A stretch of 46,309 nt of DNA from an uncultured Dehalococcoidales bacterium (GCA_964616615.1 CAZTRJ010000004.1:1-46309); one strand, 5' to 3'; numbered from the stretch's first letter, positions 10,086-37,212 are shown. The notes: a model not told the origin generated them from the letters alone. A program made the numbers and translations.

Positions 10086-10592
10086 GTGAACCTTAAGGCT
10101 CTATATAAGTTAGGCTACGGTTTATATGTCGTATGCTCAACAAAGGGAGGCAGGCTCAATGGACAAATCGCCAACACCGTGTTTCAGATAACCTCTGAGC
10201 CACCAACTATTGCCGTGAGCATCAACAAAAATAATCTAACCCATGAGTTTATCACGGAAAGCAAGGTCTTTACCGCTTCAGTCCTCTCCCAGGATACACC
10301 CCTCTCTTTCATCGGTCACTTTGGCTTCAAGTCAGGCAGAGACATAGACAAACTAGAGAGCATTAACTATAAAATAGGTGAAACGCAAGCCCCAGTGGTT
10401 ACTGACAATACGCTGGCTTATCTGGAAGCCAGGGTAATTCAACAAGTAGATGTGGGAACCCATACTATTTTTACCGGTGAGGTTGTAGGGGCGGATATTA
10501 TTAAAGAAGGCGAGCCTATGACCTATGCCTATTACCATCAGGTCAAGCGGGGCACCACTCCCAAGACGGCTCCGGTTTATGTTGAGGAGTAA
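10086..10592 (+). CDS. Flavin reductase-like FMN-binding domain protein (N-terminal part of an Hrb-type protein)
   Basis: YGLYVVCSTKGGRLNGQIANTVFQITSEPPTIAVSINK...THTIFTGEVV. GTG start follows GGAGGT. Ends at TAA 10590-10592. Confidence 0.75.
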   Translation: MNLKALYKLGYGLYVVCSTKGGRLNGQIANTVFQITSEPPTIAVSINKNNLTHEFITESKVFTASVLSQDTPLSFIGHFGFKSGRDIDKLESINYKIGETQAPVVTDNTLAYLEARVIQQVDVGTHTIFTGEVVGADIIKEGEPMTYAYYHQVKRGTTPKTAPVYVEE

Positions 10593-10772
10593 AAGGTAGA
10601 AGCTCTCAAAGCACCAAAATACCAGTGTAGCGTTTGCGGCTATATCTATGACCCGGAACTGGGAGACCCCGATGGCGGTATTAAACCGGGGACACCCTTT
10701 GAAGAGATACCAGACGACTGGGTATGTCCCGTCTGCGGAGCCGCTAAGAGCCAGTTTGAAAGAATAGAATAA
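10593..10772 (+). pseudogene. Rubredoxin domain with no start codon, in frame with the upstream flavin reductase across a single TAA
   Basis: Translation is [59 protein letters not shown]. There is no ATG/GTG/TTG between the TAA and the first CxxC. Confidence 0.75.
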
Positions 10773-10871
10773 AGGAAAAGTATTCCTATTAAAGGTAGTG
10801 CTAGAATCAAGCACACCGAGGTTGAGCAGGAAGATTATAGAAGATTATAAGGAAATAGTGCAGGACCGGAC

Positions 10872-10901
10872 TTGACAAATCACAGCATAGCAGGTTATAA
10901 T
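10872..10901 (+). promoter_or_regulatory. Sigma70-type promoter candidate: TTGACA-18-TATAAT
   Basis: TTGACA at 10872-10877 and TATAAT at 10896-10901, about 85 nt upstream of the DUF134 gene. Confidence 0.45.
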
Positions 10902-10982
10902 AATTATGGGCGTAAGTGCATAATATAGTCTGCTATGTGGACAGATTTATGGACATAAGCCCGTAATACCTAATTAGGGAGA

Positions 10983-11468
10983 TTGGAAAATATCGTGGGC
11001 AGACCACCATTATGGCGACGAGTAAATTATATTCCACAGGTCTCCTATTTCAAACCCGCTGGCGTACGCCTGGCTCAATTGCAGGAAATATGCCTTGCTG
11101 TTGAGGAGGCAGAAGCAATTCGTCTTAAGGAACTGGAAGGTCTGGAGCAGGAGGAATGCGCTCAAAGGATGAATATTTCACGGACGACCTTTGCCCGCGT
11201 GTTGACTTCAGCCCGGCAGAAAGTGGCTGATGCTCTGCTTAATGGTAAGGCGATAAAGATTGAGGGCGGAAACTTTGAGATGGCGGCTCGCCGCTTCAGG
11301 TGTGTTAATGGTCACGAATGGGATGTGCCGTTTGAAGTAATGACAAATACGCCTGCTCAGTCTTGCCCTACCTGCGATACTCCAACTATCATGCCTGTCT
11401 GGCCCTGGGGACCGGGTTGGGGTAGAGGTGGTGGAAGACGACGCCACAGTGGAGGACACAATTGGTGA
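10983..11468 (+). CDS. DUF134-type putative DNA-binding protein with a Zn-ribbon and a Gly/Arg-rich tail
   Basis: GRPPLWRRVNYIPQVSYFKPAG...EEAEAIRLKELEGLEQEECAQRMNISRTTFARVLTSARQKVADAL, then CVNGHEW...CPTCDTP, then WGRGGGRRRHSGG. The start could instead be GTG 10995. Confidence 0.65.
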   Translation: MENIVGRPPLWRRVNYIPQVSYFKPAGVRLAQLQEICLAVEEAEAIRLKELEGLEQEECAQRMNISRTTFARVLTSARQKVADALLNGKAIKIEGGNFEMAARRFRCVNGHEWDVPFEVMTNTPAQSCPTCDTPTIMPVWPWGPGWGRGGGRRRHSGGHNW

Positions 11469-11520
11469 AGGAATTCAGCGACTCACCATGAGGAGGTGAG
11501 AAGCAGGAAGGAGGTAGAAT

Positions 11521-11913
11521 ATGCCTAACGGATTTGGTAGAGGGAGAGGTGGAGGATTCGGTTTTAGAGGGGGTATGGGCTTTGGATTTCGAGGTAGCTC
11601 TCCTCCCTGGCCCTATGTGGGTATAGGTAGAGGGGGATTGCCACGATGCGGTTACTTCCTCAGTGGAGCTGCGGGAATACCGGCACAATGGCCATACCAA
11701 CAGTTCCCTTATCCCGCTAGCCCAGGATTCGGTGTCGGGGAAGGCTCATATCCTCCCTATGCCACAGCGTCACCCGCTTTTGGTAACGCTCCCTCCGCTC
11801 CCCAGATGACTCGTGAGCAGGAGCTTGATTTCCTGAAGAACCAGGCTGAAGCAATAAAGGGGCAACTGGAGCAGATAGAGACCAGGATTCAGCAACTGGG
11901 AAGTGAGACTTAA
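11521..11913 (+). CDS. DUF5320-like protein (RGG/FG low-complexity N-terminus, C-terminal coiled-coil helix)
   Basis: MPNGFGRGRGGGFGFRGGMGFGFRG ... MTREQELDFLKNQAEAIKGQLEQIETRIQQL. Confidence 0.6.
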   Translation: MPNGFGRGRGGGFGFRGGMGFGFRGSSPPWPYVGIGRGGLPRCGYFLSGAAGIPAQWPYQQFPYPASPGFGVGEGSYPPYATASPAFGNAPSAPQMTREQELDFLKNQAEAIKGQLEQIETRIQQLGSET

Positions 11914-11952
11914 GCGCCGCTTAGAATGATTAACAGCTACAAGGAGTAAATT

Positions 11953-12504
11953 ATGAGAATTGCTATTTCGGCTACGGGTCCAACTCTGGATGCCGAGGTA
12001 GACCCTCGTTTCGGCCGATGTCAATACTTTATCATTGTCGACCCGGAGACAATGGAATTTGAAGCCCTGGAAAACTCCAATGCCATGGCTGGCGGTGGGG
12101 CTGGTATCTCCACCGGACAGATGATTGCCAGTAAGGGGGTAGAGGCAGTGCTCACTGGCAACTGTGGCCCTAACGCCTACCAGGTATTGTCTGCTGCCGG
12201 GCTTCAGGTGATAACCGGCGTCTCAGGAAGGATAAGGGACGCCATTAAGGAATACAAGTTGGGCACATTTTCTGCAACCCAGCAGCCTAATGTAGCTGAC
12301 CACTTCGGCATGAGCTACGGTGGGGGTATGGGAATGGGCCGTGGTATGGGCATGGGCCGAGGCATGGGTATGGGAGCCGGAATGATGCCACCAGTTAGCC
12401 CATTATCTCAGCCTCCAAGCCCGGAGCATGAACTTGAAGCGCTCAAAACACAGTCACAGGCGCTGGCGCAGCAACTGGCTGAAATTCAACGCCACATTGA
12501 ATAA
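11953..12504 (+). CDS. NifB/NifX-family cofactor-binding domain protein fused to a GMGR repeat and a DUF5320-type helix
   Basis: MRIAISATG...VDPRFGRCQYFIIVD...GVEAVLTGNCGPNAYQVLSAAGLQV, then GGGMGMGRGMGMGRGMGMGAGMM, then ELEALKTQSQALAQQLAEIQRHIE. Confidence 0.7.
   Translation: MRIAISATGPTLDAEVDPRFGRCQYFIIVDPETMEFEALENSNAMAGGGAGISTGQMIASKGVEAVLTGNCGPNAYQVLSAAGLQVITGVSGRIRDAIKEYKLGTFSATQQPNVADHFGMSYGGGMGMGRGMGMGRGMGMGAGMMPPVSPLSQPPSPEHELEALKTQSQALAQQLAEIQRHIE
12325..12378 (+). repeat. Three tandem 18-bp (six-codon GMGMGR) repeats inside the NifX-like gene
   Basis: ggtatgggaatgggccgt / ggtatgggcatgggccga / ggcatgggtatgggagcc, read directly. Confidence 0.8.
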
Positions 12505-12530
12505 CTTGAACAGAAGAGGAGGTGACAGTC

Positions 12531-12782
12531 ATGCCAATCTATGAATACCAGTGCACTCAATGTGAGGAGAGGTTTGAAGTCCGTCAGTCCATGGGAGAGG
12601 ATGGCTCCAAATTACATTGCCCTAAATGCACTGCCCCGAATCCGAAACGGGTGATTTCCTCATTCTCCAGCCCGGGCTCAAGCACATCTGAGTCTTCGAA
12701 GATAAGCCCCCCTACCACCGTCCGTAGGAGCAGATGTGGACCACAATACCGCCTTGACAAACTCAAAAAAAAGAGGAAGTGA
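12531..12782 (+). CDS. FmdB-family zinc-ribbon protein
   Basis: MPIYEYQCTQCEERFEV...LHCPKCTAPNPKRVISSF. ATG follows AGAGGAGGTGA. Confidence 0.7.
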   Translation: MPIYEYQCTQCEERFEVRQSMGEDGSKLHCPKCTAPNPKRVISSFSSPGSSTSESSKISPPTTVRRSRCGPQYRLDKLKKKRK

Positions 12783-12786
12783 AGCT

Positions 12787-12984
12787 ATGCCCAGAGGAGA
12801 TGGCACCGGACCACCCACTAGACGCGGTCAGAGAGGTGGTCGGATGAGAGGTAACCAACCTGGAGTTGGTCCAGGTGGAAACTGCGTCTGTCCCAGTTGC
12901 GGCACGAAGGTATCCCACAAGTTGGGAACACCCTGTTACACTCTGAGCTGCCCTAAGTGCGGGACGAAGATGACGAGAGCATGA
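12787..12984 (+). CDS. DUF5320-like mini-protein with an RGG tract and a Zn-ribbon
   Basis: MPRGDGTGPPTRRGQRGGRMRGNQPGVGPGGNCVCPSCGTKVSHKLGTPCYTLSCPKCGTKM. Confidence 0.55.
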   Translation: MPRGDGTGPPTRRGQRGGRMRGNQPGVGPGGNCVCPSCGTKVSHKLGTPCYTLSCPKCGTKMTRA

Positions 12985-13847
12985 TAATATCGGTCGCCAG
13001 TGGTAAAGGCGGGACCGGTAAGACCCTGGTAGCTACCAGTCTTGCCCTCGCCTTGAGGGAAAGAGACAATGTGCAGCTTCTTGACTGTGACGTGGAAGAA
13101 CCAAACGACCATGTTTTCCTGAAGCCAATTATTACCCCCAGTGAAACAGTTTCTATCCCCGTGCCCAAAGTGGATGAGGAAAAATGTAACTACTGCGGTA
13201 AATGTGCCGAGGTCTGCGCCTACAATGCTATCGCCGTGATAAACCAGAAGGTGCTCGTCTTTCCCGAACTCTGCCACGGCTGTGGCGCCTGTAGTTATCT
13301 CTGTCCGGAAAAGGCTATTTCCGAGGCGGCAAATGAAATCGGGGTAATAGAGATGGGATATGCGGATGGCGTGGACTTTATCCATGGGAAGCTTGCCATT
13401 GGCAAGGCTATGGCACCACCTATTATCAGACAGGTTAAAGAACATGCTAGCCATACAGGTGCCGTCATCATTGATGTTTCTCCGGGGACATCATGTCCGG
13501 TAGTAGAAGCAGTCAAGGATAGCGATTTCTGCCTCCTGGTAACCGAGCCCACACCCTTTGGACTTAATGACCTGGTTCTGGCAGTAGAGACAGTGAGACG
13601 GCTTAATATACCCTGCGGCATAGTCCTCAACCGTGTCGGGGTAGGAGATGGAAAGACAGAGGAATACTGCCAGAAGGAGAATATACCCATTCTACTTACT
13701 ATTCCTCTGAATACCGAGATTGCTCACTTATACTCAAAGGGCATTCCTCTGGCCGAGGGCTTACCACAATGGAAGAGTAGTTTCCTAGAGCTTTTCGATA
13801 AGATTACGGAGATAGTAAATGAAGGAAATAGTGATACTAAGCGGTAA
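12981..13847 (+). CDS. MinD/ParA-type P-loop ATPase with an inserted 2x[4Fe-4S] ferredoxin module
   Basis: ASGKGGTGKT Walker A. CNYCGKCAEVC and CHGCGACSYLCP cluster motifs. ATGA overlap with the upstream stop. Confidence 0.8.
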   Translation: MIISVASGKGGTGKTLVATSLALALRERDNVQLLDCDVEEPNDHVFLKPIITPSETVSIPVPKVDEEKCNYCGKCAEVCAYNAIAVINQKVLVFPELCHGCGACSYLCPEKAISEAANEIGVIEMGYADGVDFIHGKLAIGKAMAPPIIRQVKEHASHTGAVIIDVSPGTSCPVVEAVKDSDFCLLVTEPTPFGLNDLVLAVETVRRLNIPCGIVLNRVGVGDGKTEEYCQKENIPILLTIPLNTEIAHLYSKGIPLAEGLPQWKSSFLELFDKITEIVNEGNSDTKR

Positions 13848-14679
13848 GGGAGGCACAGGAAAGACCAGCATCGTAGCTTCCTTTGCTGCCCTGGCTCAAA
13901 GCAAGGTGCTGGCTGATTGTGATGTCGATGCCGCTGACCTTCACTTACTGCTCAGTCCCTCAATTAAAGAGGAAAATGAGTTTTGGAGTGGGCAGGTTGC
14001 CGTTATTGATGAGGAAAAGTGCACTCAGTGCGGCCTTTGCCAGGATGTATGCCACTTTGACGCCATTGATGATTTCAGGGTTGACCCTATCTCCTGCGAG
14101 GGCTGTGGCTTCTGCTCGCATATATGCCCCGTTGAAGCTATCACTATGACGGAGAACTTAGCTGGTCAGTGGTCTATCTCTGATACCAAATATGGCCCAC
14201 TCGTTCACGCCAGACTGGGGATTGCCCAGGAGAACTCGGGGAAACTGGTAGCGGTTGTTAGGCAGCAGGCTAAACAAATTGCGGAAAAGCATGGACTCGA
14301 TTACATCATTAGTGACGGGCCTCCGGGCATCGGCTGCCCGGTCATCTCCTCACTTTCTGGAGCTAAGATGGCTCTTCTGGTAACTGAGCCGACGCTGTCG
14401 GGAATACACGACCTGGAGAGAGTCCTCGGTGTTTGTCACCACTTTGGTATTCCCGCTCTAATCTGTATTAATAAGTATGACCTTAATCAGGACAATACCC
14501 GCCAGATTGAGAGGTATTGCCTTAATAATGGGATAGAGGTAGCTGGCAGAATCCCCTTTGATAGCATTGTAACCGAAGCAATAGCACATGGTCTGCCCGT
14601 GGTAGAATATGTCCGGAACGGCGTGTCGCACCAGATAGAAGCCCTTTGGGAGATAGTCTCAAAATCGCTTAATAACTAA
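13819..14679 (+). CDS. MinD/ParA-type P-loop ATPase with an inserted 2x[4Fe-4S] ferredoxin module (paralog)
   Basis: LSGKGGTGKT Walker A. CTQCGLCQDVC and CEGCGFCSHICP motifs. 29-nt overlap with the previous gene. Confidence 0.8.
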   Translation: MKEIVILSGKGGTGKTSIVASFAALAQSKVLADCDVDAADLHLLLSPSIKEENEFWSGQVAVIDEEKCTQCGLCQDVCHFDAIDDFRVDPISCEGCGFCSHICPVEAITMTENLAGQWSISDTKYGPLVHARLGIAQENSGKLVAVVRQQAKQIAEKHGLDYIISDGPPGIGCPVISSLSGAKMALLVTEPTLSGIHDLERVLGVCHHFGIPALICINKYDLNQDNTRQIERYCLNNGIEVAGRIPFDSIVTEAIAHGLPVVEYVRNGVSHQIEALWEIVSKSLNN

Positions 14680-14741
14680 GGAGCTAAGATGCCGTAGAGA
14701 TTAAAAGCCTATATTCAAATATCAGCTCAGGAGGTCTATAA

Positions 14742-15080
14742 ATGAGGTATGCAATACCGGTAACTAGCGGTGGGCTTTCAGCACACTTTGGTCACTGCGA
14801 GCATTTCGCTTTGATTGACGTTGATGAAAAAACAAAGAAGGTTTTGAGAAAGGAGCTTGTCCTCTCACCAGGGCACCAGCCCGGTCTTCTCCCCGAATGG
14901 CTGGCAGAACAGGGAGTCTCAATGGTGATTGCTGGGGGCATGGGTTCCCGTGCTCAGAGCCTTTTTAACCAACATCACATCGGCGTTGTCATCGGCGCCC
15001 TGGAGAGTGACCCGGAGAAAGCAGTCTTGAGTTACCTAAATGGTACACTGGCTACCGGCGATAATATATGTGACCACTAG
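14742..15080 (+). CDS. NifB/NifX-family (dinitrogenase FeMo-cofactor-binding fold) small protein
   Basis: MRYAIPVTSGGLSAHFGHCEHFALIDVD...GVSMVIAGGMGSRAQSLF. Confidence 0.7.
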   Translation: MRYAIPVTSGGLSAHFGHCEHFALIDVDEKTKKVLRKELVLSPGHQPGLLPEWLAEQGVSMVIAGGMGSRAQSLFNQHHIGVVIGALESDPEKAVLSYLNGTLATGDNICDH

Positions 15081-15107
15081 GATGAAAACTAAATTGGAGG
15101 ACAATTT

Positions 15108-16124
15108 ATGGCAACTGAGGAACAAATAAGAGAGAGCCTGAACGGGGTGTTAGTTCCCGATATCAAGCGGAGCCTGGAAGGTTTAAATCTGGTGCATGAG
15201 GTCACTGTGTCTGACCGGGAGGTTAAGATTACTCTGGCTTCAACAGCACTAGGTAGTGCCGCTCAGGATTGGGTTAAAACCAAGTCTAAGGAAGTCATAG
15301 AGAGACTACCTAAGGTAAACAAAGTAGAGGTAGAATTTATCGAGGCTAAGCCAGCAGAGCTAAATGAGATTGGTCACACCTTTGCTGTAATGAGTGGCAA
15401 GGGGGGTGTAGGCAAGTCGCTGGTAGCTAGTTTAATGGCGGTAACACTAAAGCGTCAGGGCTATGAAGTAGGTATCCTTGATGCTGACATTACCGGCCCC
15501 AGCATTCCCAAGATGTTTGGCATTACTGGCCGACCCACTGGCAGTGACACCGGAATCTTGCCCGTCTTATCAAGGTCAGGGATTCCAGTCATGTCCATCA
15601 ATCTTCTTCTACCCAACGAGGATGACGCTGTTATCTGGCGTGGGCCCCTGATTGGGAAAACGATTACCCAGTTTGGGGAACAGGTGCTCTGGGGCAAACT
15701 TGATTATCTGATTATAGACTTGCCCCCGGGCACAGCTGACGCCCCACTTACCGTAATGCAATCATTCCCAATATCAGGAGTGGTCATCGTTTTCACCCCT
15801 CAGGACCTGGTGGAGATGATAGTTAGAAAAGCAGTAAACATGGCTCATAAAATGGGAAAAACTGTCCTGGGTGTGGTGGAGAATATGAGCTATTTCTATG
15901 TCCCTGAGATAGATAAAAAAATTGAACTCTTTGGTAAAAGTCGCCGAGAGGAAATGGCACAAGCCGCCCATGCCCCGCTTTTGGGACAACTACCAATAGA
16001 CCCAGAACTGGCTAAGCTCTGTGATGAGGGAAATATTGAACGCTACAGTGGCGATGTTATGAATAGCTTCAGCGAGTCTCTTTCTAAAGCTATATCAGCT
16101 AAGATAAAACAAGACAGGGAGTAG
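15108..16124 (+). CDS. mrp: Mrp/NBP35 (ApbC) family Fe-S cluster carrier ATPase with an N-terminal DUF59 domain
   Basis: DUF59-like N-terminus, deviant Walker A SGKGGVGKS, and DLPPGTAD. Confidence 0.85.
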   Translation: MATEEQIRESLNGVLVPDIKRSLEGLNLVHEVTVSDREVKITLASTALGSAAQDWVKTKSKEVIERLPKVNKVEVEFIEAKPAELNEIGHTFAVMSGKGGVGKSLVASLMAVTLKRQGYEVGILDADITGPSIPKMFGITGRPTGSDTGILPVLSRSGIPVMSINLLLPNEDDAVIWRGPLIGKTITQFGEQVLWGKLDYLIIDLPPGTADAPLTVMQSFPISGVVIVFTPQDLVEMIVRKAVNMAHKMGKTVLGVVENMSYFYVPEIDKKIELFGKSRREEMAQAAHAPLLGQLPIDPELAKLCDEGNIERYSGDVMNSFSESLSKAISAKIKQDRE

Positions 16125-16127
16125 GCA

Positions 16128-16589
16128 ATGGCTTCGGAATTCGACGAACTTCAGGAACTTATCAAAGCCGAGATGAGAAAAATCTACTCCGAGACGGCTA
16201 TTGACCATTCCATGAACCCCAGAAATGTAGGCAATATAGACAATGCCGACGGCTTGGCTAAGGTAACTGGTTCCTGTGGCGATACCATGGAGATATGGCT
16301 CAAGGTAAACAACAATACCATTGCCAATGCTACTTTCATGACTGATGGCTGTGGCACCAGTATTGCTGCCGGAAGTATGGTTACTGAGTTAGCCAAGGGA
16401 AAGAGTGTTGGCGAAGTTTGGAAGATTAGACCGCAGGATGTTCTGAACGCTCTAGGCGGGCTACCGAAAGAAAGCGAACATTGTGCTCTCCTGGCAGCAA
16501 ATACACTGAAGGAAGCGCTGAAAGACTACCTGGCGATGAAGAAGGAGCCATGGAAAAAGGCTTACCGTAAACATCAAGGAGAGGAATAG
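16128..16589 (+). CDS. IscU/NifU N-terminal-type Fe-S scaffold protein
   Basis: NPRNVG...GSCGDTMEIWLKV...FMTDGCGTSIAAGS...SEHCALLAANTL (three conserved Cys). Confidence 0.8.
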   Translation: MASEFDELQELIKAEMRKIYSETAIDHSMNPRNVGNIDNADGLAKVTGSCGDTMEIWLKVNNNTIANATFMTDGCGTSIAAGSMVTELAKGKSVGEVWKIRPQDVLNALGGLPKESEHCALLAANTLKEALKDYLAMKKEPWKKAYRKHQGEE

Positions 16590-16592
16590 ACG

Positions 16593-17231
16593 ATGCCACC
16601 TATAGTTTCAGTGATAGGCAATTCAAAATCAGGCAAGACAACCCTTATTACCAAGCTTGTTCAGGAATTGAAGTTGCGAGGTTATCGGGTGGCTACCATC
16701 AAGCATATCCCTCAGGGAATTGATTTTGATGAGGCGGGTAAGGATAGCTGGCGCCACATCCAAGCCGGCAGCGAGGCTACAGCTGTTAGCTCGCCAGACA
16801 AGATTGTGCTGATAAAGCCTGTTGCTCAAGATGCCACCCTTGATGAGACAGCTCATCTCCTGGGTGAGGACTACGATATTATTCTTACCGAGGGTTTCAA
16901 GCATGGGGATGCCCCTAAAATAGAAGCCCACCGTAAGGATGCTGGCCCACTGCTCAAAGATATTAAGAAGCTTATCGGCATAGTCACCGATGAGCCTCTG
17001 GAAACCAAGGCAAGGCAGTTCTCCTTTGATGATATTAATGGTCTAGTTGACCTGTTAGAGAAAGGCTTCATAAAGCCACAAGCAGAGCGAATTTCTCTTT
17101 ATGTCAATAATACACCTATAACTCTGACTGCTTTCCCCAAGCAGATTATTACTAGCGTCCTCCTGGCTATGGCCTCTTGCCTTAAAGGGGTAAGGGAAAT
17201 CAGGAATATTCAGATTTTCTTGAGGAAGTAA
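16593..17231 (+). CDS. mobB: Molybdopterin-guanine dinucleotide biosynthesis adaptor MobB with a C-terminal extension
   Basis: VSVIGNSKSGKTTLITKLVQELKLRGYRVATIKH...GKDSWRHIQAGS. Confidence 0.75.
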   Translation: MPPIVSVIGNSKSGKTTLITKLVQELKLRGYRVATIKHIPQGIDFDEAGKDSWRHIQAGSEATAVSSPDKIVLIKPVAQDATLDETAHLLGEDYDIILTEGFKHGDAPKIEAHRKDAGPLLKDIKKLIGIVTDEPLETKARQFSFDDINGLVDLLEKGFIKPQAERISLYVNNTPITLTAFPKQIITSVLLAMASCLKGVREIRNIQIFLRK

Positions 17232-17319
17232 CGAGGGTGAGCCAGAGAGAGAAAGTAGCTATTATCATTGACATGGTAGAGACAATGGTGGCCAGGCTAG
17301 GGCATGTGGAGGCAGAATA

Positions 17320-18294
17320 GTGGTGAATCCTATTATCTATGGGCCAGTCCCATCCAGGCGACTAGGACACAGCCTAGGAATAAACAATATCCCCCCTAAG
17401 ATATGCAGTTATTCCTGCGTTTATTGCCAGCTGGGAAACACGGTGAACATGCAGGTTGAGCGTGAGACTTTCTATGAGCCAAGCGAGATAGTCCAGAGAG
17501 TGAAGGAGAAGGTTAAACAAGTCAGGAAAAAGGGTGAACCAATTGACTATCTAACCTTTGTCCCCGATGGTGAGCCTACTCTGGATATTAATCTTGGTAA
17601 AGAGATTGAGCTTCTGAATTCTTTAGATATTAAAATTGCAGTTATTACTAATGCTTCTCTCATCTGGTGCCAAGATGTTAGACAAGATTTACAAAAAGCC
17701 GATTGGGTGTCACTAAAGGTAGATATGGCAAGCCAAGGAATATGGCGTAGAATCAATAGACCACAAAAATTGTTGAACCTTGAAGAAATTTTAGACGGAA
17801 TGCTGAAGTTCGCTGATACTTTTGAGGGTGAACTAACCACCGAGAGCATGCTTATCCAGGGTATAAACGATGGTAGCCAGGAAATCACGAGAATAGCCCG
17901 CATCCTGGCAGAGTTGAAACCAAAAAAAGCCTACCTGGCAATTCCGACAAGACCACCAGCAAAAAGGACAATAAGTGCTGCCAGTGAACAAGCCATCAAT
18001 ATGGCATTCCAAATTCTTAAACAGAGATTAAGTAACGTAGAATATTTAATCGGCTACGAAGGAAACACCTTTGCCTTTACCGGTAATGTTGAAGATGACT
18101 TACTCAGCATTACCTCGGTGCATCCTATGAGAGAAGAAGCTGTTATAGAACTACTGAACAAGGCTGATACCGATTGGAAAGTTGTCGACAAGCTAATAGA
18201 AGACGGCAGCCTCATGGAGGTGGAATATCAGGGAAGGAAATTTTATATGAGGAAATTGCCCCCAAGTAGGAGGAAACCAGCGGAGGGCGGTTAA
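17320..18294 (+). CDS. Radical SAM protein (COG0731-like) of unknown specific function
   Basis: YGPVPSRRLGHSLGINNIPPKICSYSCVYCQLG carries CX3CX2C. GTG start follows GTGGAGG. Confidence 0.75.
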   Translation: MVNPIIYGPVPSRRLGHSLGINNIPPKICSYSCVYCQLGNTVNMQVERETFYEPSEIVQRVKEKVKQVRKKGEPIDYLTFVPDGEPTLDINLGKEIELLNSLDIKIAVITNASLIWCQDVRQDLQKADWVSLKVDMASQGIWRRINRPQKLLNLEEILDGMLKFADTFEGELTTESMLIQGINDGSQEITRIARILAELKPKKAYLAIPTRPPAKRTISAASEQAINMAFQILKQRLSNVEYLIGYEGNTFAFTGNVEDDLLSITSVHPMREEAVIELLNKADTDWKVVDKLIEDGSLMEVEYQGRKFYMRKLPPSRRKPAEGG

Positions 18295-18336
18295 TTAGAT
18301 ACTTGGCGCTCAATAAGGAGTTTAAAAGGTGAAACA

Positions 18337-18651
18337 ATGCTACAAATAAGGAAAGACCTATGTGTTGGCTGTGGGCTCTGTGCTGAGAATTGCCCACAAC
18401 AAGCCATCTCACTTGTTACCGGTCAGGCTGAAATAGACCAAAGGCGGTGCAACCAGTGCCGCTTTTGCCTCGAGGTTTGCCCCCAGAGGGCAATTGTAGA
18501 AATGGTCCCGGTATCAAAGCCAGAGCTACAAGCTACGGTTGTTTCACTGAAGCAAAGGACAGAGAACCTTATCGTGCAGATTGAAAAGCTGAAGCACCAG
18601 AAGGCTATCAGGGCTGAAACTACTGGTCAAAACTGGAGGGAACAGAGTTGA
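18337..18651 (+). CDS. 2x[4Fe-4S] ferredoxin with a C-terminal coiled-coil helix
   Basis: CVGCGLCAENCP and CNQCRFCLEVCP, with the tail ELQATVVSLKQRTENLIVQIEKLKHQ. Confidence 0.75.
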   Translation: MLQIRKDLCVGCGLCAENCPQQAISLVTGQAEIDQRRCNQCRFCLEVCPQRAIVEMVPVSKPELQATVVSLKQRTENLIVQIEKLKHQKAIRAETTGQNWREQS

Positions 18652-19559
18652 GAACCTACCTTGATTGCCTGCCCTGCCTGTTGAGCCAGGCTCTAAAGGC
18701 GGCGAGAGCAGCAACCGATGACGAGGGGGTCCACCGCCAGGTCATAGACGCAGTAGCCGCTATGATTCCACAGCTTTCGTTGGGCTTGAGACCACCGGAG
18801 ATAGCGCAGCAGGGCTACCGGCTAATTTACCAAATAACCAGAAATGATGACCCCTTCTACCAGGCAAAGGCTGAAGCTAACCAGGCGGCTTTAGCTCTTT
18901 ACCCACACCTCAAGCAGGTGGTGGCAGATTCAGAAGAGCCACTGCTCACGGCATGTAAGCTGGCTATAGGGGGCAACTCAATTGACCTTGGTCCCAATTT
19001 TGAGCAGGTTGATATGGATAGTATCGTGGCAACAGCCATAGCATCTCCGCCAGCTATCAATGACTATCAACAGTTCCGAAGCAGTATTAATAACTCACGG
19101 CACATCTTATACCTGGGAGACAATGCTGGTGAGATTGTGTTTGACCGTGTGCTCATTGAGGAGCTTCACCAGTTAAAGGAGCTGGAGATTGACTTTGTGG
19201 TAAGGGAAAGACCAATTATAAATGATGTCACATTAGATGATGCTATAACTGTGGGCATGGACCGGGCGGCCAGAATTATCTCCAGTGGCTCGGATGCTCC
19301 CGCCACCATTCTCTCTCAGTGCTCCTCTGAGATGCTAAAGCTCTATTATTCCGCCGACATAATAATCGCCAAAGGGCAGGGAAACTACGAGTCCTTGAAC
19401 GAGGAGCAGGGTAATATCTTCTTTCTGCTCAGGGCTAAGTGTCCCTTGGCAGCAGACTTGCTGGGGGTAAGCGTTGGCGATGCCATTCTGAGGCAAAATC
19501 CTGCCCGGGCTAAAGCTAAGGGTAACAAGGATTATCGAACAGAACCCCGAAAATTATGA
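18648..19559 (+). CDS. DUF89 / ARMT1-like metal-dependent phosphatase family protein
   Basis: MRTYLDCLPCLLSQALKAARAAT... and ...YLGDNAGEIVFD...IIAKGQGNYESL. TTG start overlaps the ferredoxin stop by 4 nt. Confidence 0.65.
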   Translation: MRTYLDCLPCLLSQALKAARAATDDEGVHRQVIDAVAAMIPQLSLGLRPPEIAQQGYRLIYQITRNDDPFYQAKAEANQAALALYPHLKQVVADSEEPLLTACKLAIGGNSIDLGPNFEQVDMDSIVATAIASPPAINDYQQFRSSINNSRHILYLGDNAGEIVFDRVLIEELHQLKELEIDFVVRERPIINDVTLDDAITVGMDRAARIISSGSDAPATILSQCSSEMLKLYYSADIIIAKGQGNYESLNEEQGNIFFLLRAKCPLAADLLGVSVGDAILRQNPARAKAKGNKDYRTEPRKL

Positions 19560-19695
19560 TACCCTCTACTTCTTTAGAAGTTCTCCTTGCTACGAATCAA
19601 CTCTAGAGTTATCATAACCGGAGAAATACTATAAAAAGCCAGGTCATTAACCAAGTGTATTACAACTATATAAGCTGAGGCAAAAAAGATAAGTC

Positions 19696-20415: not shown

Positions 20416-20704
20416 TGAGATAGATGAGGCACGAAGGCTATTGGGATTGGGTGCAGCGGCGACACTGAAGGAAATTAAGTCCGCTTATAGGCGGATGGCT
20501 TTCCGCCATCATCCCGATATGCACACCGATAGCGATTCCACCGGGGACGAGGAGTTTATGAAAAGATTGAATTGGGCGTATAAACTCCTCATCGAGTACT
20601 GCCATGACTATAAGTATACCTTTCGTGAAGAGGATGTAGCCAGAACATACACTCATGACGAGTATCTAAGAAGATATTATCACGGATGGTTTGATGGTAT
20701 CTAA
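20402..20704 (+). CDS. Stand-alone J-domain (DnaJ-like) protein
   Basis: LKEIKSAYRRMAFRHHPDMH (HPD motif). 100 aa, with a 14-nt overlap with the methyltransferase gene. Confidence 0.7.
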   Translation: MANFNEIDEARRLLGLGAAATLKEIKSAYRRMAFRHHPDMHTDSDSTGDEEFMKRLNWAYKLLIEYCHDYKYTFREEDVARTYTHDEYLRRYYHGWFDGI

Positions 20705-20834: not shown

Positions 20835-21233
20835 CTACTCCAGCAGAATTTGTTTAAGCTTTTCGAGAGCATTACGTTGTAACCGAGAGACGTGCATTTG
20901 GGAAATGCCTAGACGCTCCGCGATCTTGGTTTGAGATAGACCTTTGTAAAATTTCAAATGTATAATGGTCTTTTCCCGCTTAGCAAGTCTACGAACGGCA
21001 TCTGAGAGAGTTCCCCTATCTGCCAGCTTTTCAAATTCTGTATCCTCACTTGCCAGGTAATCCATAAGGCTTGAGGATTCTCCGTTACCGCCACTATCGT
21101 ATTCAGCATCTAAGGATAGTGGCTTACCCCGCTTATCCACTTCAAAGGTGTCATATACTTCCTCTTGTAACAACCCTGTTGCCTGAGCAATTTCTGTAAT
21201 AGTAGGCGACCGGCCCAATTTGTGGCTAAGCAC
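20835..21233 (-). CDS. C-terminal part (regions 3-4) of a SigB/SigF/SigG-group sigma-70 factor
   Basis: LGRSPTITEIAQATGLLQEEV... and IIHLKFYKGLSQTKIAERLGISQMHVSRLQRNALEKL. In frame with the ORF at 21261-21605. Confidence 0.8.
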   Translation of the reverse strand: MLSHKLGRSPTITEIAQATGLLQEEVYDTFEVDKRGKPLSLDAEYDSGGNGESSSLMDYLASEDTEFEKLADRGTLSDAVRRLAKREKTIIHLKFYKGLSQTKIAERLGISQMHVSRLQRNALEKLKQILLE

Positions 21234-21260
21234 TTCGACCGTTCTCTCTACTACGACCTT

Positions 21261-21590
21261 TTATCTCTGTAGCTTTCTAGGTATCTTAACTGCCCAGCCA
21301 TGATCACGGAAGTAATTCTTGACCTCCCCAACTATCACCGGGACAGCAAAGGCTACAAAACTGTCTCCTCGAGTCGGGTTATATTTCTCAATGGCTTTAA
21401 GTAATCCTATGCTTCCTACTTGAATGAGGTCTTCCGGGGGTTCACCTGAGCGGCTGAATCTTCTGCATAGCCGGCGCACCAGAGGTAAATGGCCTTCTAC
21501 CAAACGTTCCCGGGCTGTCATGTCCCTCGACTGCTGATACTGTTGGAGCAGTTGCTTGGTGTCTGATAGCGTGGAGTCCTTGATTCCCAT
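21261..21590 (-). CDS. N-terminal part (region 2) of the same sigma-70 factor, ending at in-frame TAA 21263-21261
   Basis: LVEGHLPLVRRLCRRF...DLIQVGSIGLLKAIEKYNP...FVAFAVPVIVGEVKNYFRDHGWAVKIPRKLQR*. ATG 21590 follows GGAGGT. ATG 21605 is an alternative start. Confidence 0.8.
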   Translation of the reverse strand: MGIKDSTLSDTKQLLQQYQQSRDMTARERLVEGHLPLVRRLCRRFSRSGEPPEDLIQVGSIGLLKAIEKYNPTRGDSFVAFAVPVIVGEVKNYFRDHGWAVKIPRKLQR

Positions 21591-21621
21591 TGCACCTACC
21601 TCCATATATACTCAATAAATA

Positions 21622-31018: not shown

Positions 31019-32647
31019 ATGAGGATTATTGTCGTCGATGATAGGGAAGAGGAACAGTACCTAGCGGAGACTCTGCTGAAGGGAAGTGGTTACGAGGTCG
31101 ATAAGGCTACCAATGGCGCCGAAGCCCTGGAAAAACTTTGTGCCGATGGCTTTGACATGATTATCTCCGACATTCTAATGCCGGTCATGGATGGTTACCA
31201 GCTTTGCCGCGAGTGCAAAGAGGACAAGAAACTGAGGAATATTCCCTTTGTTTTCTACACGGCCACCTACAAAGATGAAAGAGATGAGGAACTCGCCTCA
31301 AAGGTGGGAGCCGATAGGTTCATTCGGAAGCCCATTGACCCGGGGGAGTTCATAAATATTATCCAAGGCGTAATTAGAGATATGGAGGAAGGCAAGGCAG
31401 TCCCGAATAAGCAGGTTGTAGAAGCGAAGGAAGAGGTTCTTAAGCTCTACAACGAGCGTCTGGTGAAGAAGCTGGAGGAGAAGAGGCTGGGCTTGGAAGC
31501 AGAAATCATCGAGCGCCAGCGGGCGGAAGAACAGACCAAACAACTCCAAGAATATCTCCAGCTTCAAATTGACCGAATGCCTATCGGATTGATTGTTTGG
31601 GATACAGAGTTTCGCATGCAATCTTGGAATCCCGCTGCCGAGAAAATTTTTGGCTTCACCGCGGAAGAAGTGTTGGGAAAAGATCCTTACGACCTCATTG
31701 TACCAAAAGAGGTTCAACCGCAGGTGGGTGATATTTGGCGTCGACTGCTGGAAGGGGACATGACAGCGTATAGCATAAATGAGAACATAACCAAAGATGG
31801 TCGTACTATAATCTGTGATTGGTCTAACACACCACTTAAAGCTGCCGATGGCACAGTGGCAAGTGTTCTTTCCATGGTTCAAGACATTACCGGGCGCAAG
31901 GAGGCGGAGAAGAAAGCCCGTGAGGTGGAAACCTTGAAGGAGGTTGACCGGTTGCGGAGCAGACTACTGGCTAATGTCTCCCATGAATTACGCACGCCGC
32001 TGACTTCCATTAAGGGCTTTGCTACCACACTTCTTCGGTCAGATGTTAAGTGGAGTGAGGAAGACCAGCGGGATTTTCTTCAGTCCATTGACCATGAGAC
32101 CGAGCGTCTCATTCGCCTAGTCAGCGACCTGTTAGATATGTCACGCATTGAGGCTGGAGGATTGAAGTTAGACAAGTATAACTACCAGATTGCTGAGATA
32201 CTGGACTCAGCCAGCAGCAGGCTGGCTACCTTCGCCCAGCACCACCAACTGGAGGTAATAGTCCCTTCGGAGCTTCCGTCAGTGTTTGTTGACCAAATGC
32301 GCATCGGACAGGTCTTGACCAATCTGGTAGAAAACGCAGCAAAATATTCCGTGGAAGGTACGCCGATCACAATCGAGGCACAGCTTGCCGGGGATAATAT
32401 TAATATCAGTGTTACTGACAGAGGTCAGGGCATCCCGGCTGAGCTTTTGGACAAGGTGTTTGACCGCTTCTACCAGGCTGAGAGTATTGTTAGTGGTCGG
32501 AAGAGTGGGACCGGCCTGGGACTATCCATCTGTAAGGGCATTATAGAGTACCACGGCGGGAGAATCTGGGTGGAGAGCAAGCTGGGGGAGGGCTCTAAAT
32601 TCAGCTTCAGCCTGCCGGTGGGTAAAGGGGAGGAAGAGACTGCCTAA
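31019..32647 (+). CDS. Hybrid response regulator / histidine kinase (REC, coiled coil, PAS, HisKA, HATPase_c)
   Basis: MRIIVVDDREEEQ...DMIISDILMPVMDG. H-box NVSHELRTPLTSIKGF. G-boxes DRGQGI and GTGLGLSIC. ATG follows GGAGGCGGAG. Confidence 0.85.
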   Translation: MRIIVVDDREEEQYLAETLLKGSGYEVDKATNGAEALEKLCADGFDMIISDILMPVMDGYQLCRECKEDKKLRNIPFVFYTATYKDERDEELASKVGADRFIRKPIDPGEFINIIQGVIRDMEEGKAVPNKQVVEAKEEVLKLYNERLVKKLEEKRLGLEAEIIERQRAEEQTKQLQEYLQLQIDRMPIGLIVWDTEFRMQSWNPAAEKIFGFTAEEVLGKDPYDLIVPKEVQPQVGDIWRRLLEGDMTAYSINENITKDGRTIICDWSNTPLKAADGTVASVLSMVQDITGRKEAEKKAREVETLKEVDRLRSRLLANVSHELRTPLTSIKGFATTLLRSDVKWSEEDQRDFLQSIDHETERLIRLVSDLLDMSRIEAGGLKLDKYNYQIAEILDSASSRLATFAQHHQLEVIVPSELPSVFVDQMRIGQVLTNLVENAAKYSVEGTPITIEAQLAGDNINISVTDRGQGIPAELLDKVFDRFYQAESIVSGRKSGTGLGLSICKGIIEYHGGRIWVESKLGEGSKFSFSLPVGKGEEETA

Positions 32648-32648
32648 G

Positions 32649-33005
32649 ATTCTGGTTATTGAAGATGAGCTAAGCATCCAAAAACTGGTAAAAGCTAACC
32701 TGACTGCCAGCGGATATCAAGTGCTTGTGGCTGGTAATGGTGAGGAAGGCCTGGAACTGGCAGAGCTTGAACGCCCTAACCTAATCCTGCTTGATCTAAG
32801 GATGCCAGGGATGTCAGGCTGGGATGTCCTTATGGTGCTCCAGACTAACCAGAGGCTTTGGAGAATACCGGTGATTATCATGACGGCCACGGTTCCGGAG
32901 TCTGAAGAGCACAAAATCCGGGGGATGAGAGCTGCTAGCTTCCTGACCAAGCCATTCAGTGCTGATGAACTACTTCGCCAGGTGAAACAAGCATTGGGGG
33001 AGTGA
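32649..33005 (+). CDS. Single-domain receiver protein. The full domain has no canonical start codon.
   Basis: The frame reads (LPK)ILVIEDELSIQKLVKANLTASGYQVLVAGNGEEGLELAE...NLILLDLRMPGMSG...FLTKPF. The only in-frame candidates before GTG 32721 are CTG 32640, ATT 32649 and CTG 32652. Confidence 0.5.
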   Translation: MLVIEDELSIQKLVKANLTASGYQVLVAGNGEEGLELAELERPNLILLDLRMPGMSGWDVLMVLQTNQRLWRIPVIIMTATVPESEEHKIRGMRAASFLTKPFSADELLRQVKQALGE

Positions 33006-33012
33006 TGGCAAA

Positions 33013-35076: not shown

Positions 35077-35255
35077 ATAATTATGTTTAATAATGTGAAA
35101 GGGGTAAGGTCTTTATGACCACTCGCTATTCTAATAATGGCATTAATATTTTTACTAAATTTTCACACCTTTTTAATGCCACTTTCACATCTCTATGCTA
35201 ACTTGATAGTAGAAGGGATGATTTGAGTCTTTTTAATCCTCCCTGGGAGGGAATT

Positions 35256-35642
35256 ATGAAATACAACATCCTGGTTATCGAAGAAAGCAACCATGCTTTG
35301 AGAGGCAGGATTGCTTCCGCTTTGACCAGAGAAGGCTTCAGTGTAGCCACAGCGTCAAGCTCTCAGGAGATAGTATCGGCGCCGGATAAATTCAAATCCC
35401 AGCTAATTATCCTGGGGGAAGGGCTGCCCATAGATAGCTTTGAAGCCTGTTCTCAGCTTCGCCAAGCGGTTGATGCTCCCATCTTAATGGTAGGTGCCGT
35501 CCCCAGTGATAAGGCTTGGAACAGGATAGTAGAGGCCGGAGCCGATTTCTATCTGGAAAAGCCCTTCGGCTATCTGGAACTGGCAGCCAGAGTTAGAGCT
35601 CTACTCCGCCGCTACGAATGGAGCGCTAGCCAGAAAGCATAA
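35256..35642 (+). CDS. Atypical stand-alone receiver-like protein lacking the phospho-acceptor Asp
   Basis: MKYNILVIEES...QLIILGEGLP (Gly where the phosphorylated Asp aligns)...FYLEKPF. ATG follows GGGAGGG. Confidence 0.65.
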   Translation: MKYNILVIEESNHALRGRIASALTREGFSVATASSSQEIVSAPDKFKSQLIILGEGLPIDSFEACSQLRQAVDAPILMVGAVPSDKAWNRIVEAGADFYLEKPFGYLELAARVRALLRRYEWSASQKA

Positions 35643-35658
35643 GGGAAAAGTCGGCTAG

Positions 35659-35850
35659 TTTGGATATGGGCAATACATTTACTGCCTCGCCCTGAGTTTA
35701 GGATATATTCTAATGACCAGGATAGGACTCACCGGTGTAGGGGTAGGCTGGATAGTGGCTCAGACCATGGTGGCTATTACAGTTGTCCTGCTCTTATCCC
35801 ACAGGCACCATCGCTCAGCCTTAACAATAATGGAGCAGCATCCAGGATAG
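35659..35850 (+). pseudogene. C-terminal relic of a Wzx/MATE-like polysaccharide flippase
   Basis: Open frame FGYGQYIYCLALSLGYILMTRIGLTGVGVGWIVAQTMVAITVVLLLS...* with no upstream body. Confidence 0.4.
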
Positions 35851-35893
35851 CTATACTACTCATGCACGCCTCACCTAAAGCTCTTTCGTCTGC

Positions 35894-36589
35894 TTACTTA
35901 GTATTTACGAAATAATAGCCCACACCGGGTTTGGTGAGGATATATTTTGGCTTTTTCGGGTCAGGTTCAAGCTTCTTCCTCAGGCGGGCTATGAAGACAT
36001 GTACATAATGCGCCTCACGGTTATACTCAGGACCCCATACCTCTTGGAGGAGCATAGTGTTGGTGAGTACCTTACCAGCATTGAGCACCAGTTGCTCCAG
36101 CAGGGAAAACTCAATTGGGGTGAGTCTTATCTCGTTACTACCCATGGTAACACGCCAGCGGGCAAAGTTAACCTCCAGGTCTCCGCTGGTAAAAGTAGGT
36201 GATGACACGACAACTTCCGGTTTGGCACGGCGAAGAAGCACTCTCACCCGCGCTAACAGCTCATCGATACTGAAGGGCTTGGTGATATAATCATCGGCAC
36301 CCAGGTCAAGGCATTTAACCTTGTCAATCCCATCACCCTTGGTACTCAGCATTATAATTGGAACCCGAGACCAGTCTCGGATACGGCGACATACCTCCAC
36401 GCTATCAACCTTGGGTAGCATGGTATCTAGAATTACTAAATCAGGAAGCTCTCCCTCTGTTTTCCCCAGAGCTTCCTCGCCATCTATCGCTAATACGACT
36501 TGATAACCACTCGCTTTGAGGTTGGCACGGAGGAACCTCAGAACGGACAGGTCGCTATCAGCGACAAGTATGCGAAGACCACGTTTCAT
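35894..36589 (-). CDS. OmpR/PhoB-family response regulator (paralog of 33013-33702)
   Basis: REC plus winged helix: LTPIEFSLLEQLVLNAGKVLTNTMLLQEVWG...PGVGYYF. Confidence 0.9.
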   Translation of the reverse strand: MKRGLRILVADSDLSVLRFLRANLKASGYQVVLAIDGEEALGKTEGELPDLVILDTMLPKVDSVEVCRRIRDWSRVPIIMLSTKGDGIDKVKCLDLGADDYITKPFSIDELLARVRVLLRRAKPEVVVSSPTFTSGDLEVNFARWRVTMGSNEIRLTPIEFSLLEQLVLNAGKVLTNTMLLQEVWGPEYNREAHYVHVFIARLRKKLEPDPKKPKYILTKPGVGYYFVNTK

Positions 36590-36942
36590 ACTGTCACCCT
36601 CTCAGACTGCTCTTTACCCATATCTCATTGGTCACATTAAAAGTGGTGTAGAAAGCATCCCCGGTTAAATGCCACTCGTCTATATTATCGCAACAATTAT
36701 GCCAATTGTCAATTAGTTATGGAACACTTTTACCCCCTATTGCCAACTTTTTATGGAATATTTATATCTCTACATCCAATTTTTATGCCCTGTTTATGTC
36801 TCTCAAGCTAAACTAGAACGGCTAGTCTTATCGGCAGCACCAGTGAGGGCACACTCCAGGGAAATTGCCACCCTACTTGGTTACGACTACGGCTCTGAGG
36901 TCGTGCACCAACATAATTTAGTTATCGTTCAGGAGGAAGAAA

Positions 36943-37212
36943 ATGGGTACAGGAAAGCTCTATAGACTCGGTGATAACTAATTTGTAGCCAATGTTGACT
37001 ACCAGTTGTTCCACGACGAGGCAGCAGCAAATTGGTGGGGAGAACTCAGCCTCATAGATTATGTCCCCCTCGGTGATGATGACCGGTATATGATTGAATT
37101 GGAGGATAAGCGTAAAAGCAGATGCTATCTAAAAAAGAGGATTAACCGGGCAGTGAGTGGAGTTCCACCCTGCTACAAATATCACGTTACCGGCTTCAGC
37201 CCCTTTGCATAG
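36943..37212 (+). pseudogene. Small conserved-looking ORF interrupted by in-frame TAA (36979-36981)
   Basis: AGGAGGAAG, a 3-nt spacer and ATG 36943 give MGTGKLYRLGDN*FVANVDYQLFHDEAAANWWGELSLIDYVPLGDDDRYMIELEDKRKSRCYLKKRINRAVSGVPPCYKYHVTGFSPFA*. The ORF track only reports the TTG 37006 part. Confidence 0.5.

Follow-up and report, generated by a model that had tools for sequence, protein, structure and literature searches.

Three genes in the window, the 46,309-nt stretch of DNA from an uncultured marine Dehalococcoidales bacterium that we analyzed as a whole, each contain one in-frame TAA. They encode an Hrb-type fusion protein, a sigma factor, and a conserved 89-aa protein. The question is whether these codons are errors, are decoded as sense, or simply cut the genes that contain them.

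Three genes are cut by TAA

The genes are truly cut by TAA. A preliminary description made from the sequence alone had listed the three codons, and we reproduced all of its coordinates and contexts. It had also stated that TAA alone is used, and a six-frame scan of the window found no TAG or TGA interruption and no further same-frame gene pair resembling one split gene. The 8-mer TAAAAGGT was indeed common to two of the three stops (Hrb and sigma), and the second codon past the stop was GTN in all three. The genes had been called otherwise undegraded, and this also held. The downstream parts have no further disabling changes, and the conserved residues of the rubredoxin domain, of sigma regions 3 and 4, and of the small protein are all kept, an observation of little power with mutations as young as these. 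Uninterrupted homologs number in the hundreds and have Lys (Hrb), Gln (sigma), or Gln/Lys (89-aa protein) at the TAA sites. Programmed readthrough predicts a TAA conserved at the same position in orthologs, and there was none at the Hrb, sigma, or 89-aa sites.

Hrb of Moorella thermoacetica is a high-molecular-weight rubredoxin, a flavin reductase-rubredoxin fusion that passes electrons to diiron proteins detoxifying oxygen and peroxide. The gene described here has the identical two-domain order and the same genomic company (rubrerythrins and SufCB), and the intact fusion is found in the same island of related Dehalococcoidales genomes. It differs from Moorella Hrb in that a TAA in the linker is predicted to remove the rubredoxin domain in this strain. 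The flavin-reductase half (10086..10592, plus strand; Pfam Flavin_Reduct, E 4.7e-37) ends at TAA 10590-10592, and the rubredoxin half (10593..10772, plus strand; Pfam Rubredoxin, E 3.5e-26) continues in frame. The two domains that make up one polypeptide in an Hrb-type fusion are here in frame with a TAA between them. There is no ATG, GTG, or TTG between the Flavin_Reduct and Rubredoxin domains, leaving the rubredoxin half without its own start, but alignment showed all of its conserved residues to be intact. Homologs are single fusions of 227 to 228 aa (as much as 92% identical), and all 120 among the matches listed are uninterrupted. The residue at the stop position is K in 11 aligned homologs, except for one Q. 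The closest relative (L004, roughly 95% identical) reads GAG GAG AAA AAG GTA, with AAA (Lys) in place of TAA. A truncated 168-aa flavin-reductase product was called in three Logan assemblies (SRR8146443, SRR24302412, and SRR24302413).

The sigma factor is of the SigB/F/G type (group 3) and is encoded on the minus strand. Its N-terminal part (21261..21605; Sigma70_r2, E 1e-21) ends at TAA 21263-21261, and regions 3 and 4 (20835..21260; Sigma70_r3, E 3.4e-11; Sigma70_r4, E 8.1e-15) follow in frame past the TAA. In SigB, SigF, and SigG, a single open frame spans regions 2, 3, and 4, with an anti-sigma kinase gene adjoining. A HATPase_c_2 protein is encoded upstream (22155-22586), but here the TAA interrupts the frame as it passes from region 2 to region 3. 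The public record lists regions 3 and 4 as a 132-aa protein of their own. All 14 aligned homologs have Gln at the stop position.

The third gene (36943..37212, plus strand) encodes a conserved 89-aa Dehalococcoidales protein. An AGGAGG is followed by ATG 36943, 12 codons, TAA 36979-36981, and a further 76 codons. We found 357 homologs, nearly all 89 aa long, and 14 that were aligned have Q, K, or E where the window has TAA. In the relative L005, this site is AAC AAG TTT.

The stops are genuine and derived, and they differ in mutational type

Consensus error had been offered as one explanation. It would attribute the TAAs to the base calling or consensus of a low-coverage metagenome assembly, and depth is indeed only 2 to 7x per run. 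Our evidence that the codons are real consists of contigs and k-mers. Logan contigs of runs X1, X3, X4, and X5 have zero differences across the TAA sites, and 31-mers spanning the TAAs also occur in X2, X7, and X24. For the 89-aa gene, the contigs in X1 and X3 are identical to the window. Thus, at least four to five public runs have yielded contigs, assembled independently, that contain the TAAs, although the independence of the runs is uncertain, because they may stem from one site or one sampling campaign and X1 and X2 are probably one data set. The same bases were recovered in separate assemblies from at least four runs in two or three studies, and the rest of the window has no error-like changes between these runs. 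Therefore, we reject this explanation as extremely improbable. The runs describe a near-clonal population, four of them showing no more than 5 differences over 11 kb. No RNA runs containing this stretch were found.

Comparison with other strains showed the stops to be derived. This lineage is about 3% diverged (2 to 3%) from its nearest strains, which keep sense codons. At the sigma site, runs X8 and X9, from strains that are 97 to 98% identical, have G at 21263, giving CAA. The sigma CAA>TAA change is private to the seawater population. The comparison also revealed a fourth derived TAA (12502..12504, plus strand), which is the present stop of a NifX-DUF5320 gene. Related strains in three lake-water runs (X9, X25, and X15) have T>G at 12502, which makes the codon GAA. 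Without this TAA the frame runs seven codons on (ELEQKRR) to TGA 12523, so the computed effect is to trim seven C-terminal residues from the product. Lake-water run X25 also has one of the two sampled 31-mers across the Hrb TAA, so the Hrb stop may date back further or be spread more widely.

The changes we infer are AAA>TAA (Hrb), CAA>TAA (sigma), CAA or AAA>TAA (89-aa gene), and GAA>TAA (12502). The base changes are of three kinds (A>T, C>T, and G>T) and are on both strands. Therefore, no single mutational process explains the TAAs, and the suggestion of one strain-specific bias, such as GAA to TAA, is not supported.

Number and context of the stops

Three nonsense codons had been thought to exceed chance. 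With about 53 genes in all, three broken ones make a high count, though not an extreme one at about 3% divergence with nonsynonymous and synonymous changes (N:S) at about 18:21. That ratio comes from the neighboring genes, and a rough calculation from the counts led us to expect a few surviving nonsense changes in 46 kb. In the sigma gene itself, the differences from X8 and X9 give an N:S of 13:10, which mixes both lineages and has no power on selection since the stop arose. Together, these ratios indicate that between-strain selection is weak. No second TAA-bearing haplotype was found for a test of purifying selection downstream.

The choice of stop codon and its surroundings are more unusual. 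With all probabilities calculated post hoc, TAA in three of three stops has a probability of about 0.04, and TAA in all four derived stops has a probability of about 0.014, though TAG is mutationally likelier. In simulations, some pair sharing a stop plus 5 nt arose with a probability of 0.0017 (about 0.002), and GTN at the second codon in three of three had a probability of 0.0003. Only three in-frame NAA-AAG-GT sites exist in the genes of the window, and two of them are the TAAs. The context coincidence of TAAAAGGT is therefore statistically odd and hard to dismiss comfortably.

These observations raise the possibility of a sequence-targeted process that writes T before AAAAGGT, and perhaps other motifs, as either a mutational hotspot or a shared library or sequencing artifact. 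Consistent with this, TAAAAGGT occurs six times in the window, against 1.7 expected, and none of 100 shuffles reached six. T is found at 6 of 11 NAAAAGGT sites, and two-thirds of the in-frame NAA-AAG-GT sites are affected. However, the two changes differ in chemistry (A>T and C>T) and are on opposite strands, the motif is absent at the third and fourth TAAs, and A, C, or G is kept at the other 5 of the 11 NAAAAGGT sites. The six TAAAAGGT sites have nothing in common beyond the 8-mer, and a systematic Illumina error would not prevail in both read directions and in several separately assembled runs. We consider such a process very improbable. The AAG GT context of the Hrb and sigma stops was inherited from ancestral Lys-Val codons. 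It follows the stop in two of the four derived TAAs, the other two being followed by TTT GTA and CTT GAA. We regard both the use of TAA throughout and the 8-mer common to two stops as coincidental. The linkers are rich in Lys, Glu, and Gln, whose codons are one step from TAA or TAG, which helps such a coincidence to arise.

Decoding, gene fission, or gene loss

Context-dependent readthrough or a suppressor tRNA had also been proposed. The TAAs might be usefully decoded by an ochre suppressor tRNA encoded elsewhere (anticodon UUA, derived from tRNA-Gln or tRNA-Lys), or by near-cognate readthrough at weak UAA-A, so that some full-length protein is made and the nonsense changes are nearly neutral. 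The derived stops are all TAA, they replace Gln or Lys, and the parts downstream of them are intact. Classical ochre suppressors and near-cognate readthrough insert Gln or Lys. In addition, the +4 base is A in the two stops with TAA-AAG-GT, and UAA is a weaker signal in that context in E. coli. However, no context is common to all of the stops, as position +4 is T at the third TAA and C at the fourth. The nearest strains lack the stops, so a recoding signal has had no time to arise. Nor would tolerance by itself account for the mutation of two of the three NAA-AAG-GT sites. Moreover, TAA is the commonest terminator in the window, the normal stop of 26 of 53 genes (about 50%). Reassignment would have it depleted or backed up by further stops, but back-up stops were not enriched after TAA relative to TGA in the genes of the window (the next in-frame stop is a median of 11.5 codons away after either). 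Four TAA stops are in frame with the gene that follows, over 258 to 803 codons, and efficient suppression would give fusion proteins. Both the frequency of TAA as a normal terminator and its repeated occurrence in frame with a following gene speak against reassignment and against an efficient ochre suppressor. The only tRNAs in the window are tRNA-Arg(TCG) and tRNA-His(GTG). For these reasons we disfavor readthrough or a suppressor tRNA as the explanation, and useful decoding of these codons is unlikely.

A weaker version is that this Dehalococcoidales lineage either has a natural ochre suppressor that acts weakly or terminates with unusual leakiness at UAA in A-rich contexts, and that TAAs at Gln/Lys sites are partly read through and drift into nonessential genes. 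We judge this decidedly improbable. If true, it would bear on how stop-codon reassignment begins, with a wild bacterium at the first step of loosening a stop codon. Ochre suppression in E. coli is achieved by mutant tRNA-Gln or tRNA-Lys (supB and supG/supL). Phages recode stop codons with suppressor tRNAs (10.1101/2021.08.26.457843). As in those systems, the in-frame stops here are at Gln or Lys positions of relatives. Unlike in those systems, TAA is still the main terminator, relatives lack the stops, and no suppressor tRNA is among the tRNAs of the window.

Alternatively, the Hrb and sigma genes might have undergone adaptive fission at their linkers, yielding a stand-alone flavin reductase and separate region 2 and region 3/4 fragments, the latter restarted at GTG 21233. 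Both TAAs are exactly between Pfam domains, and this GTG is in frame 9 codons past the sigma TAA. Other organisms in the same samples have flavin reductases and rubredoxins as stand-alone proteins, and two-subunit sigma factors are known in Bacillus (SigO-RsoA). However, the rubredoxin part lacks any start codon or Shine-Dalgarno sequence, no convincing Shine-Dalgarno sequence precedes GTG 21233, and none of the relatives has the split arrangement. The 89-aa frame, cut after 12 codons, cannot be a fission product. This makes adaptive fission quite unlikely.

We conclude that the three in-frame TAAs, together with the one at 12502, are probably ordinary, recent single-base nonsense substitutions that arose independently in one lineage and became fixed in a near-clonal population. 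Those in Hrb and sigma and at 12502 are one base from the sense codon of relatives, the stops are real in DNA by contigs and k-mers, and privacy to the lineage was shown for the sigma CAA>TAA change. Each substitution would have turned a Lys, Gln, or Glu codon in a charged interdomain or terminal segment into TAA. The youth of the mutations would explain why the genes look undegraded, only 2 to 3% divergence separating this lineage from strains with sense codons. We infer that the parts downstream of the TAAs are lost. The Hrb-type enzyme is expected to be produced as a flavin reductase minus its rubredoxin domain, the SigB-type sigma factor to be truncated past region 2 and inactive, and the 89-aa protein to be lost. 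Fixation might reflect drift, hitchhiking during a clonal sweep, or selection that favored the loss of stress-response functions, which is known for rpoS in E. coli.

Loss of rpoS, the general stress sigma factor of E. coli, by point mutation is well documented (PMC2700278, PMC3484664). As in rpoS and other pseudogenes with internal stops, a single base change made a Gln or Lys codon a stop in a gene that is otherwise intact, and the change is lineage-private. One target here is likewise a stress-response sigma factor, dispensable under steady conditions. In contrast to rpoS loss alleles, there are three or four changes in 46 kb, all are TAA, and two have a common 8-mer. The host is also uncultured, and selection for loss is only a possibility. 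If the inferred losses are correct, a near-clonal marine Dehalococcoidales population has given up a general-stress sigma factor and the rubredoxin arm of an oxygen-defense enzyme, which would fit a stable anoxic niche or a recent bottleneck. The locus is also a cautionary case, showing that when a metagenome-assembled genome contains several clean in-frame stops, these can be genuine and still not amount to recoding. Comparing strains that differ by a few percent decides the question faster than context analysis does.

One further TAA, the stop of a hybrid kinase gene (32645-32647), had been described as followed in the +1 frame by a start-less receiver domain. We looked for relatives of this region and found none. 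The domain is complete (32640..33005, plus strand; Response_reg, E 7.6e-24), stands alone, and overlaps the kinase stop. It has no canonical start before 32721, as described, but it is not without a candidate start, a CTG at 32640 being present 6 nt past a GGAGG (32629-32633).

In-frame TAA codons in three genes

The preliminary description reported three gene interruptions by TAA, and inspection of the sequence and of Pfam matches in the window confirmed their positions and quoted contexts exactly. The Hrb gene, encoding a flavin reductase-rubredoxin fusion, is interrupted at 10590-10592 on the forward strand. Its Flavin_Reduct domain runs to ...PVYVEE and is followed by the stop and then by a complete rubredoxin in the same frame, which ends at the natural stop (TAA 10770-10772). 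A sequence check found no ATG, GTG, or TTG between the interrupting TAA and the rubredoxin. The gene starts with GTG at 10086 in the window and with ATG in a related lake-water strain (G>A at 10086). In the gene for a SigB/F/G-type sigma factor, on the reverse strand, region 2 ends with ...PRKLQR, the TAA occupies 21263-21261, and regions 3 and 4 continue in frame. The third interruption, at 36979-36981 on the forward strand, is in a small ORF for a conserved 89-amino-acid protein: an AGGAGG and an ATG at 36943 are followed by 12 codons, the stop, and a further 76 codons.

We also ran a six-frame scan of the window for same-frame ORF pairs split by one stop. As had been stated, no interruption by TAG or TGA was found, and there were no further convincing split genes. 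Pfam coverage is complete for the remaining genes. Several candidates were rejected. Position 2918 is the stop of a STAS gene adjoining the GTG of a full-length TPP enzyme, 25696 lies between two unknown proteins, neither with a family match, and the extension after the stop at 35640 is junk-like. At 6104, 8049, 16122, 16587, 18292, and 43438, the adjoining genes have their own starts. The window is one complete contig (46,309 bases) from a public metagenome-assembled genome, and the names of homologs assign it to the Chloroflexota (class Dehalococcoidia or order Dehalococcoidales). Its content is ordinary for a chromosome. It includes an island for oxygen defence and Fe-S functions (two rubrerythrins, SufC, SufBD, the Hrb-type gene, and an orange-protein-like cluster), two-component systems, a sigma/anti-sigma module, FabF, RecJ, ComEA, and ComEC.

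The stops in public sequencing runs and in relatives

Consensus errors had been offered as one explanation. We compared the window with contigs and sampled 31-mers from public sequencing runs (coded X1 to X9, X15, X24, and X25), each assembled separately by Logan, at depths of 2-7x. Contigs of X1 and X3 showed zero differences from the window across all three TAA sites. A contig of X4 spanned the Hrb TAA and one of X5 spanned the sigma factor TAA, again with no difference. Sampled 31-mers containing the T of the sigma factor TAA were present in X1 to X5, and those containing the T of the Hrb TAA were present in X1 to X5, X7, and X24, although X1 and X2 may be one data set. Three assemblies (SRR8146443, SRR24302412, and SRR24302413) include a protein call for a truncated flavin reductase of 168 amino acids. 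Because the same TAAs recur in contigs assembled separately from several runs, assembly or consensus error is excluded for practical purposes. In X25, from lake water, one of two sampled 31-mers spanning the Hrb TAA was present; either the same strain is in that lake water or the lake strain has the Hrb TAA too.

Four of these runs (X4 to X7) differ from the window at no more than 5 positions across 11 kb, so the population is near-clonal, strikingly so for an uncultured bacterium. Three studies (2018-2025) contributed seven seawater or marine runs with an almost identical genotype, at no more than 5 differences in 11 kb (10400-21500); the strains in lake-water and sediment runs are about 3% diverged from the window. 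Among RNA runs, none containing the stretch was found.

By sequence comparison, the three TAAs are not conserved among relatives. The closest sigma factor homologs (83% identical and below) are uninterrupted proteins of 250-256 amino acids, and the stop position is Gln in 14 of 14 aligned homologs. In X8 (sediment) and X9 (lake water), which have 97-98% DNA identity to the window, a G at 21263 makes the codon CAA; this A>G change rules out X9 as a diverged haplotype that keeps the sigma factor TAA. The 120 listed Hrb matches, up to 92% identical, are single fusions of 227-235 amino acids, with Lys at the stop position in 10 aligned homologs and Gln in 1. The closest DNA relative reads GAG GAG AAA AAG GTA there. 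We rejected separate flavin reductase and rubredoxin genes at the Hrb locus because these 120 homologs are fused; the candidates were loose contig ends from other organisms or in-frame fusions. For the small ORF, there are 357 homologs, nearly all of 89 amino acids, with Gln, Lys, or Glu at the stop position, and one relative reads AAC AAG TTT. No other truncated variants were found among the cluster members.

A fourth TAA also differs between strains. The stop of a NifX-DUF5320 gene (TAA 12502-12504) is GAA in X9, X25, and X15, all from lake water, where the protein has 7 additional residues (ELEQKRR) before a TGA. This TGA (region 12502-12525) overlaps the ribosome-binding site of a Zn-ribbon gene (ATG 12532). 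TAA 12502-12504 is probably the derived state, because the corresponding position in the adjoining DUF5320 paralog is a sense codon. Nearby, contigs in three lake-water runs link 11888 back to 11508 across 39 other bases (11508-11888), and there is also a 159-base skip (11703-11863). This suggests that the repetitive DUF5320 genes vary in copy number or arrangement.

Recoding, mutational bias, and chance

Ordinary young nonsense mutations explain the evidence better than recoding does. Readthrough of TAA or a suppressor tRNA had been proposed, and the use of TAA elsewhere in the window bears on both. Gene ends in the window (n = 53) comprise 26 TAA, 14 TAG, and 12 TGA; the 53rd gene is Hrb, whose natural TAA is outside this count. 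After TAA, the next in-frame stop lies at a median of 11.5 codons, and the value after TGA is equal. Behind four TAA-ended genes, the next gene is in frame for 258-803 codons (e.g., STAS to TPP enzyme and ComEA to ComEC). Thus, TAA is a normal gene end with no extra back-up stops and with in-frame genes behind it, and reassignment is excluded. Efficient ochre suppression would come at a cost, and weak natural UAA suppression keeps a small residual chance. A single mutational bias, such as GAA to TAA, does not fit either, because the inferred changes differ between sites: A>T in Hrb, C>T in the sigma factor gene (on the strand opposite to Hrb), C>T or A>T in the small ORF, and G>T in the DUF5320 gene (12502). 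Judged from these inferred changes, deamination, oxidative damage, or any other process with one signature cannot explain all four.

The exclusive use of TAA and the shared context of two stops were also set against chance. With the codon usage of the window, a random nonsense mutation yields TAA with a probability of about 0.33-0.35, and the chance of all TAA is 0.04 for three of three and 0.014 for four of four. At least one pair among three random nonsense sites would have the same stop and next five bases with P = 0.0017, and all three would have GTN as the second codon after the stop with P = 0.0003; all these probabilities are post hoc, since the pattern was picked after looking. The Hrb and sigma factor stops share TAAAAGGT, which has 6 copies in the window versus 1.7 expected from shuffling. 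The six sites have no further shared sequence and lie in unrelated settings. The four copies outside broken genes are at 4577, 18323, 25778, and 34203 (minus strand), one of them 14 nt upstream of ATG 18337, and no common flank was seen among the copies. In-frame NAA-AAG-GT occurs at only three sites in the genes of the window, and two of these are the TAAs. Both are inside Lys/Glu/Gln-rich interdomain linkers, where truncation is least harmful and codons are a single change away from TAA or TAG. Even if TAA were tolerated in an AAG-GT context, the mutation of two out of only three such sites would still need accounting for, either by chance or by a process that targets the motif. Because one change is A>T and the other C>T, on opposite strands, we treat the shared stop context as an unexplained coincidence.

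The number of stops had been thought to exceed random decay, but no special mechanism is needed to reach it. The window differs from the lake and sediment strains by about 3%, and the ratio of nonsynonymous to synonymous differences is high, at 18:21 in neighbouring genes and 13:10 in the sigma factor gene (20835-21605; close strains, intact alleles included). The latter suggests that the sigma factor is weakly constrained across the group. The synonymous count implies that roughly 1,500 mutations arose in the 46 kb on this scale of divergence, of which some 4-5% would be nonsense. Three or four survive, and their positions are in a stress sigma factor, a domain linker, a small accessory gene, and a C terminus.

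Expected consequences and the kinase-receiver junction

Most probably, the nonsense substitutions are independent and recent and became fixed in a clonal lineage. The Hrb product is expected to be a flavin reductase without its rubredoxin domain, and the sigma factor, cut after region 2, is expected to be inactive. The 89-amino-acid protein is expected to be lost, because invariant N-terminal residues lie upstream of any possible restart at TTG 37006. Fixation may have been by drift, hitch-hiking, or selection. A well-known parallel is rpoS, in which point mutations abolish a general-stress sigma factor (PMC2700278, PMC3484664).

A hybrid kinase gene whose TAA is followed by a receiver domain had been listed beside these cases. 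The kinase is complete, with its HATPase_c domain extending up to residue 543 of 551, and ends at its TAA in the ordinary way; we see no link between this junction and the TAA pattern. No syntenic locus was found in genome contigs with a 479-amino-acid kinase, which gave distant paralogs only, and the 551-amino-acid kinase matched at best 42-54% identical proteins of differing architectures in metagenome contigs. A receiver-domain search of protein representatives was swamped by multireceiver proteins and did not recover relatives of the junction. The receiver, which begins at 32646 in the +1 frame, had been described as lacking a start. There is indeed no canonical start before GTG 32721, which would remove the beginning of the domain, but CTG 32640 is a candidate. 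This codon, 6 nt downstream of GGAGG 32629-32633, overlaps the end of the kinase gene (CTGCCTAA; region 32627-32650), an arrangement with translational-coupling geometry. Either the receiver starts at this CTG or its start was lost by a point change.
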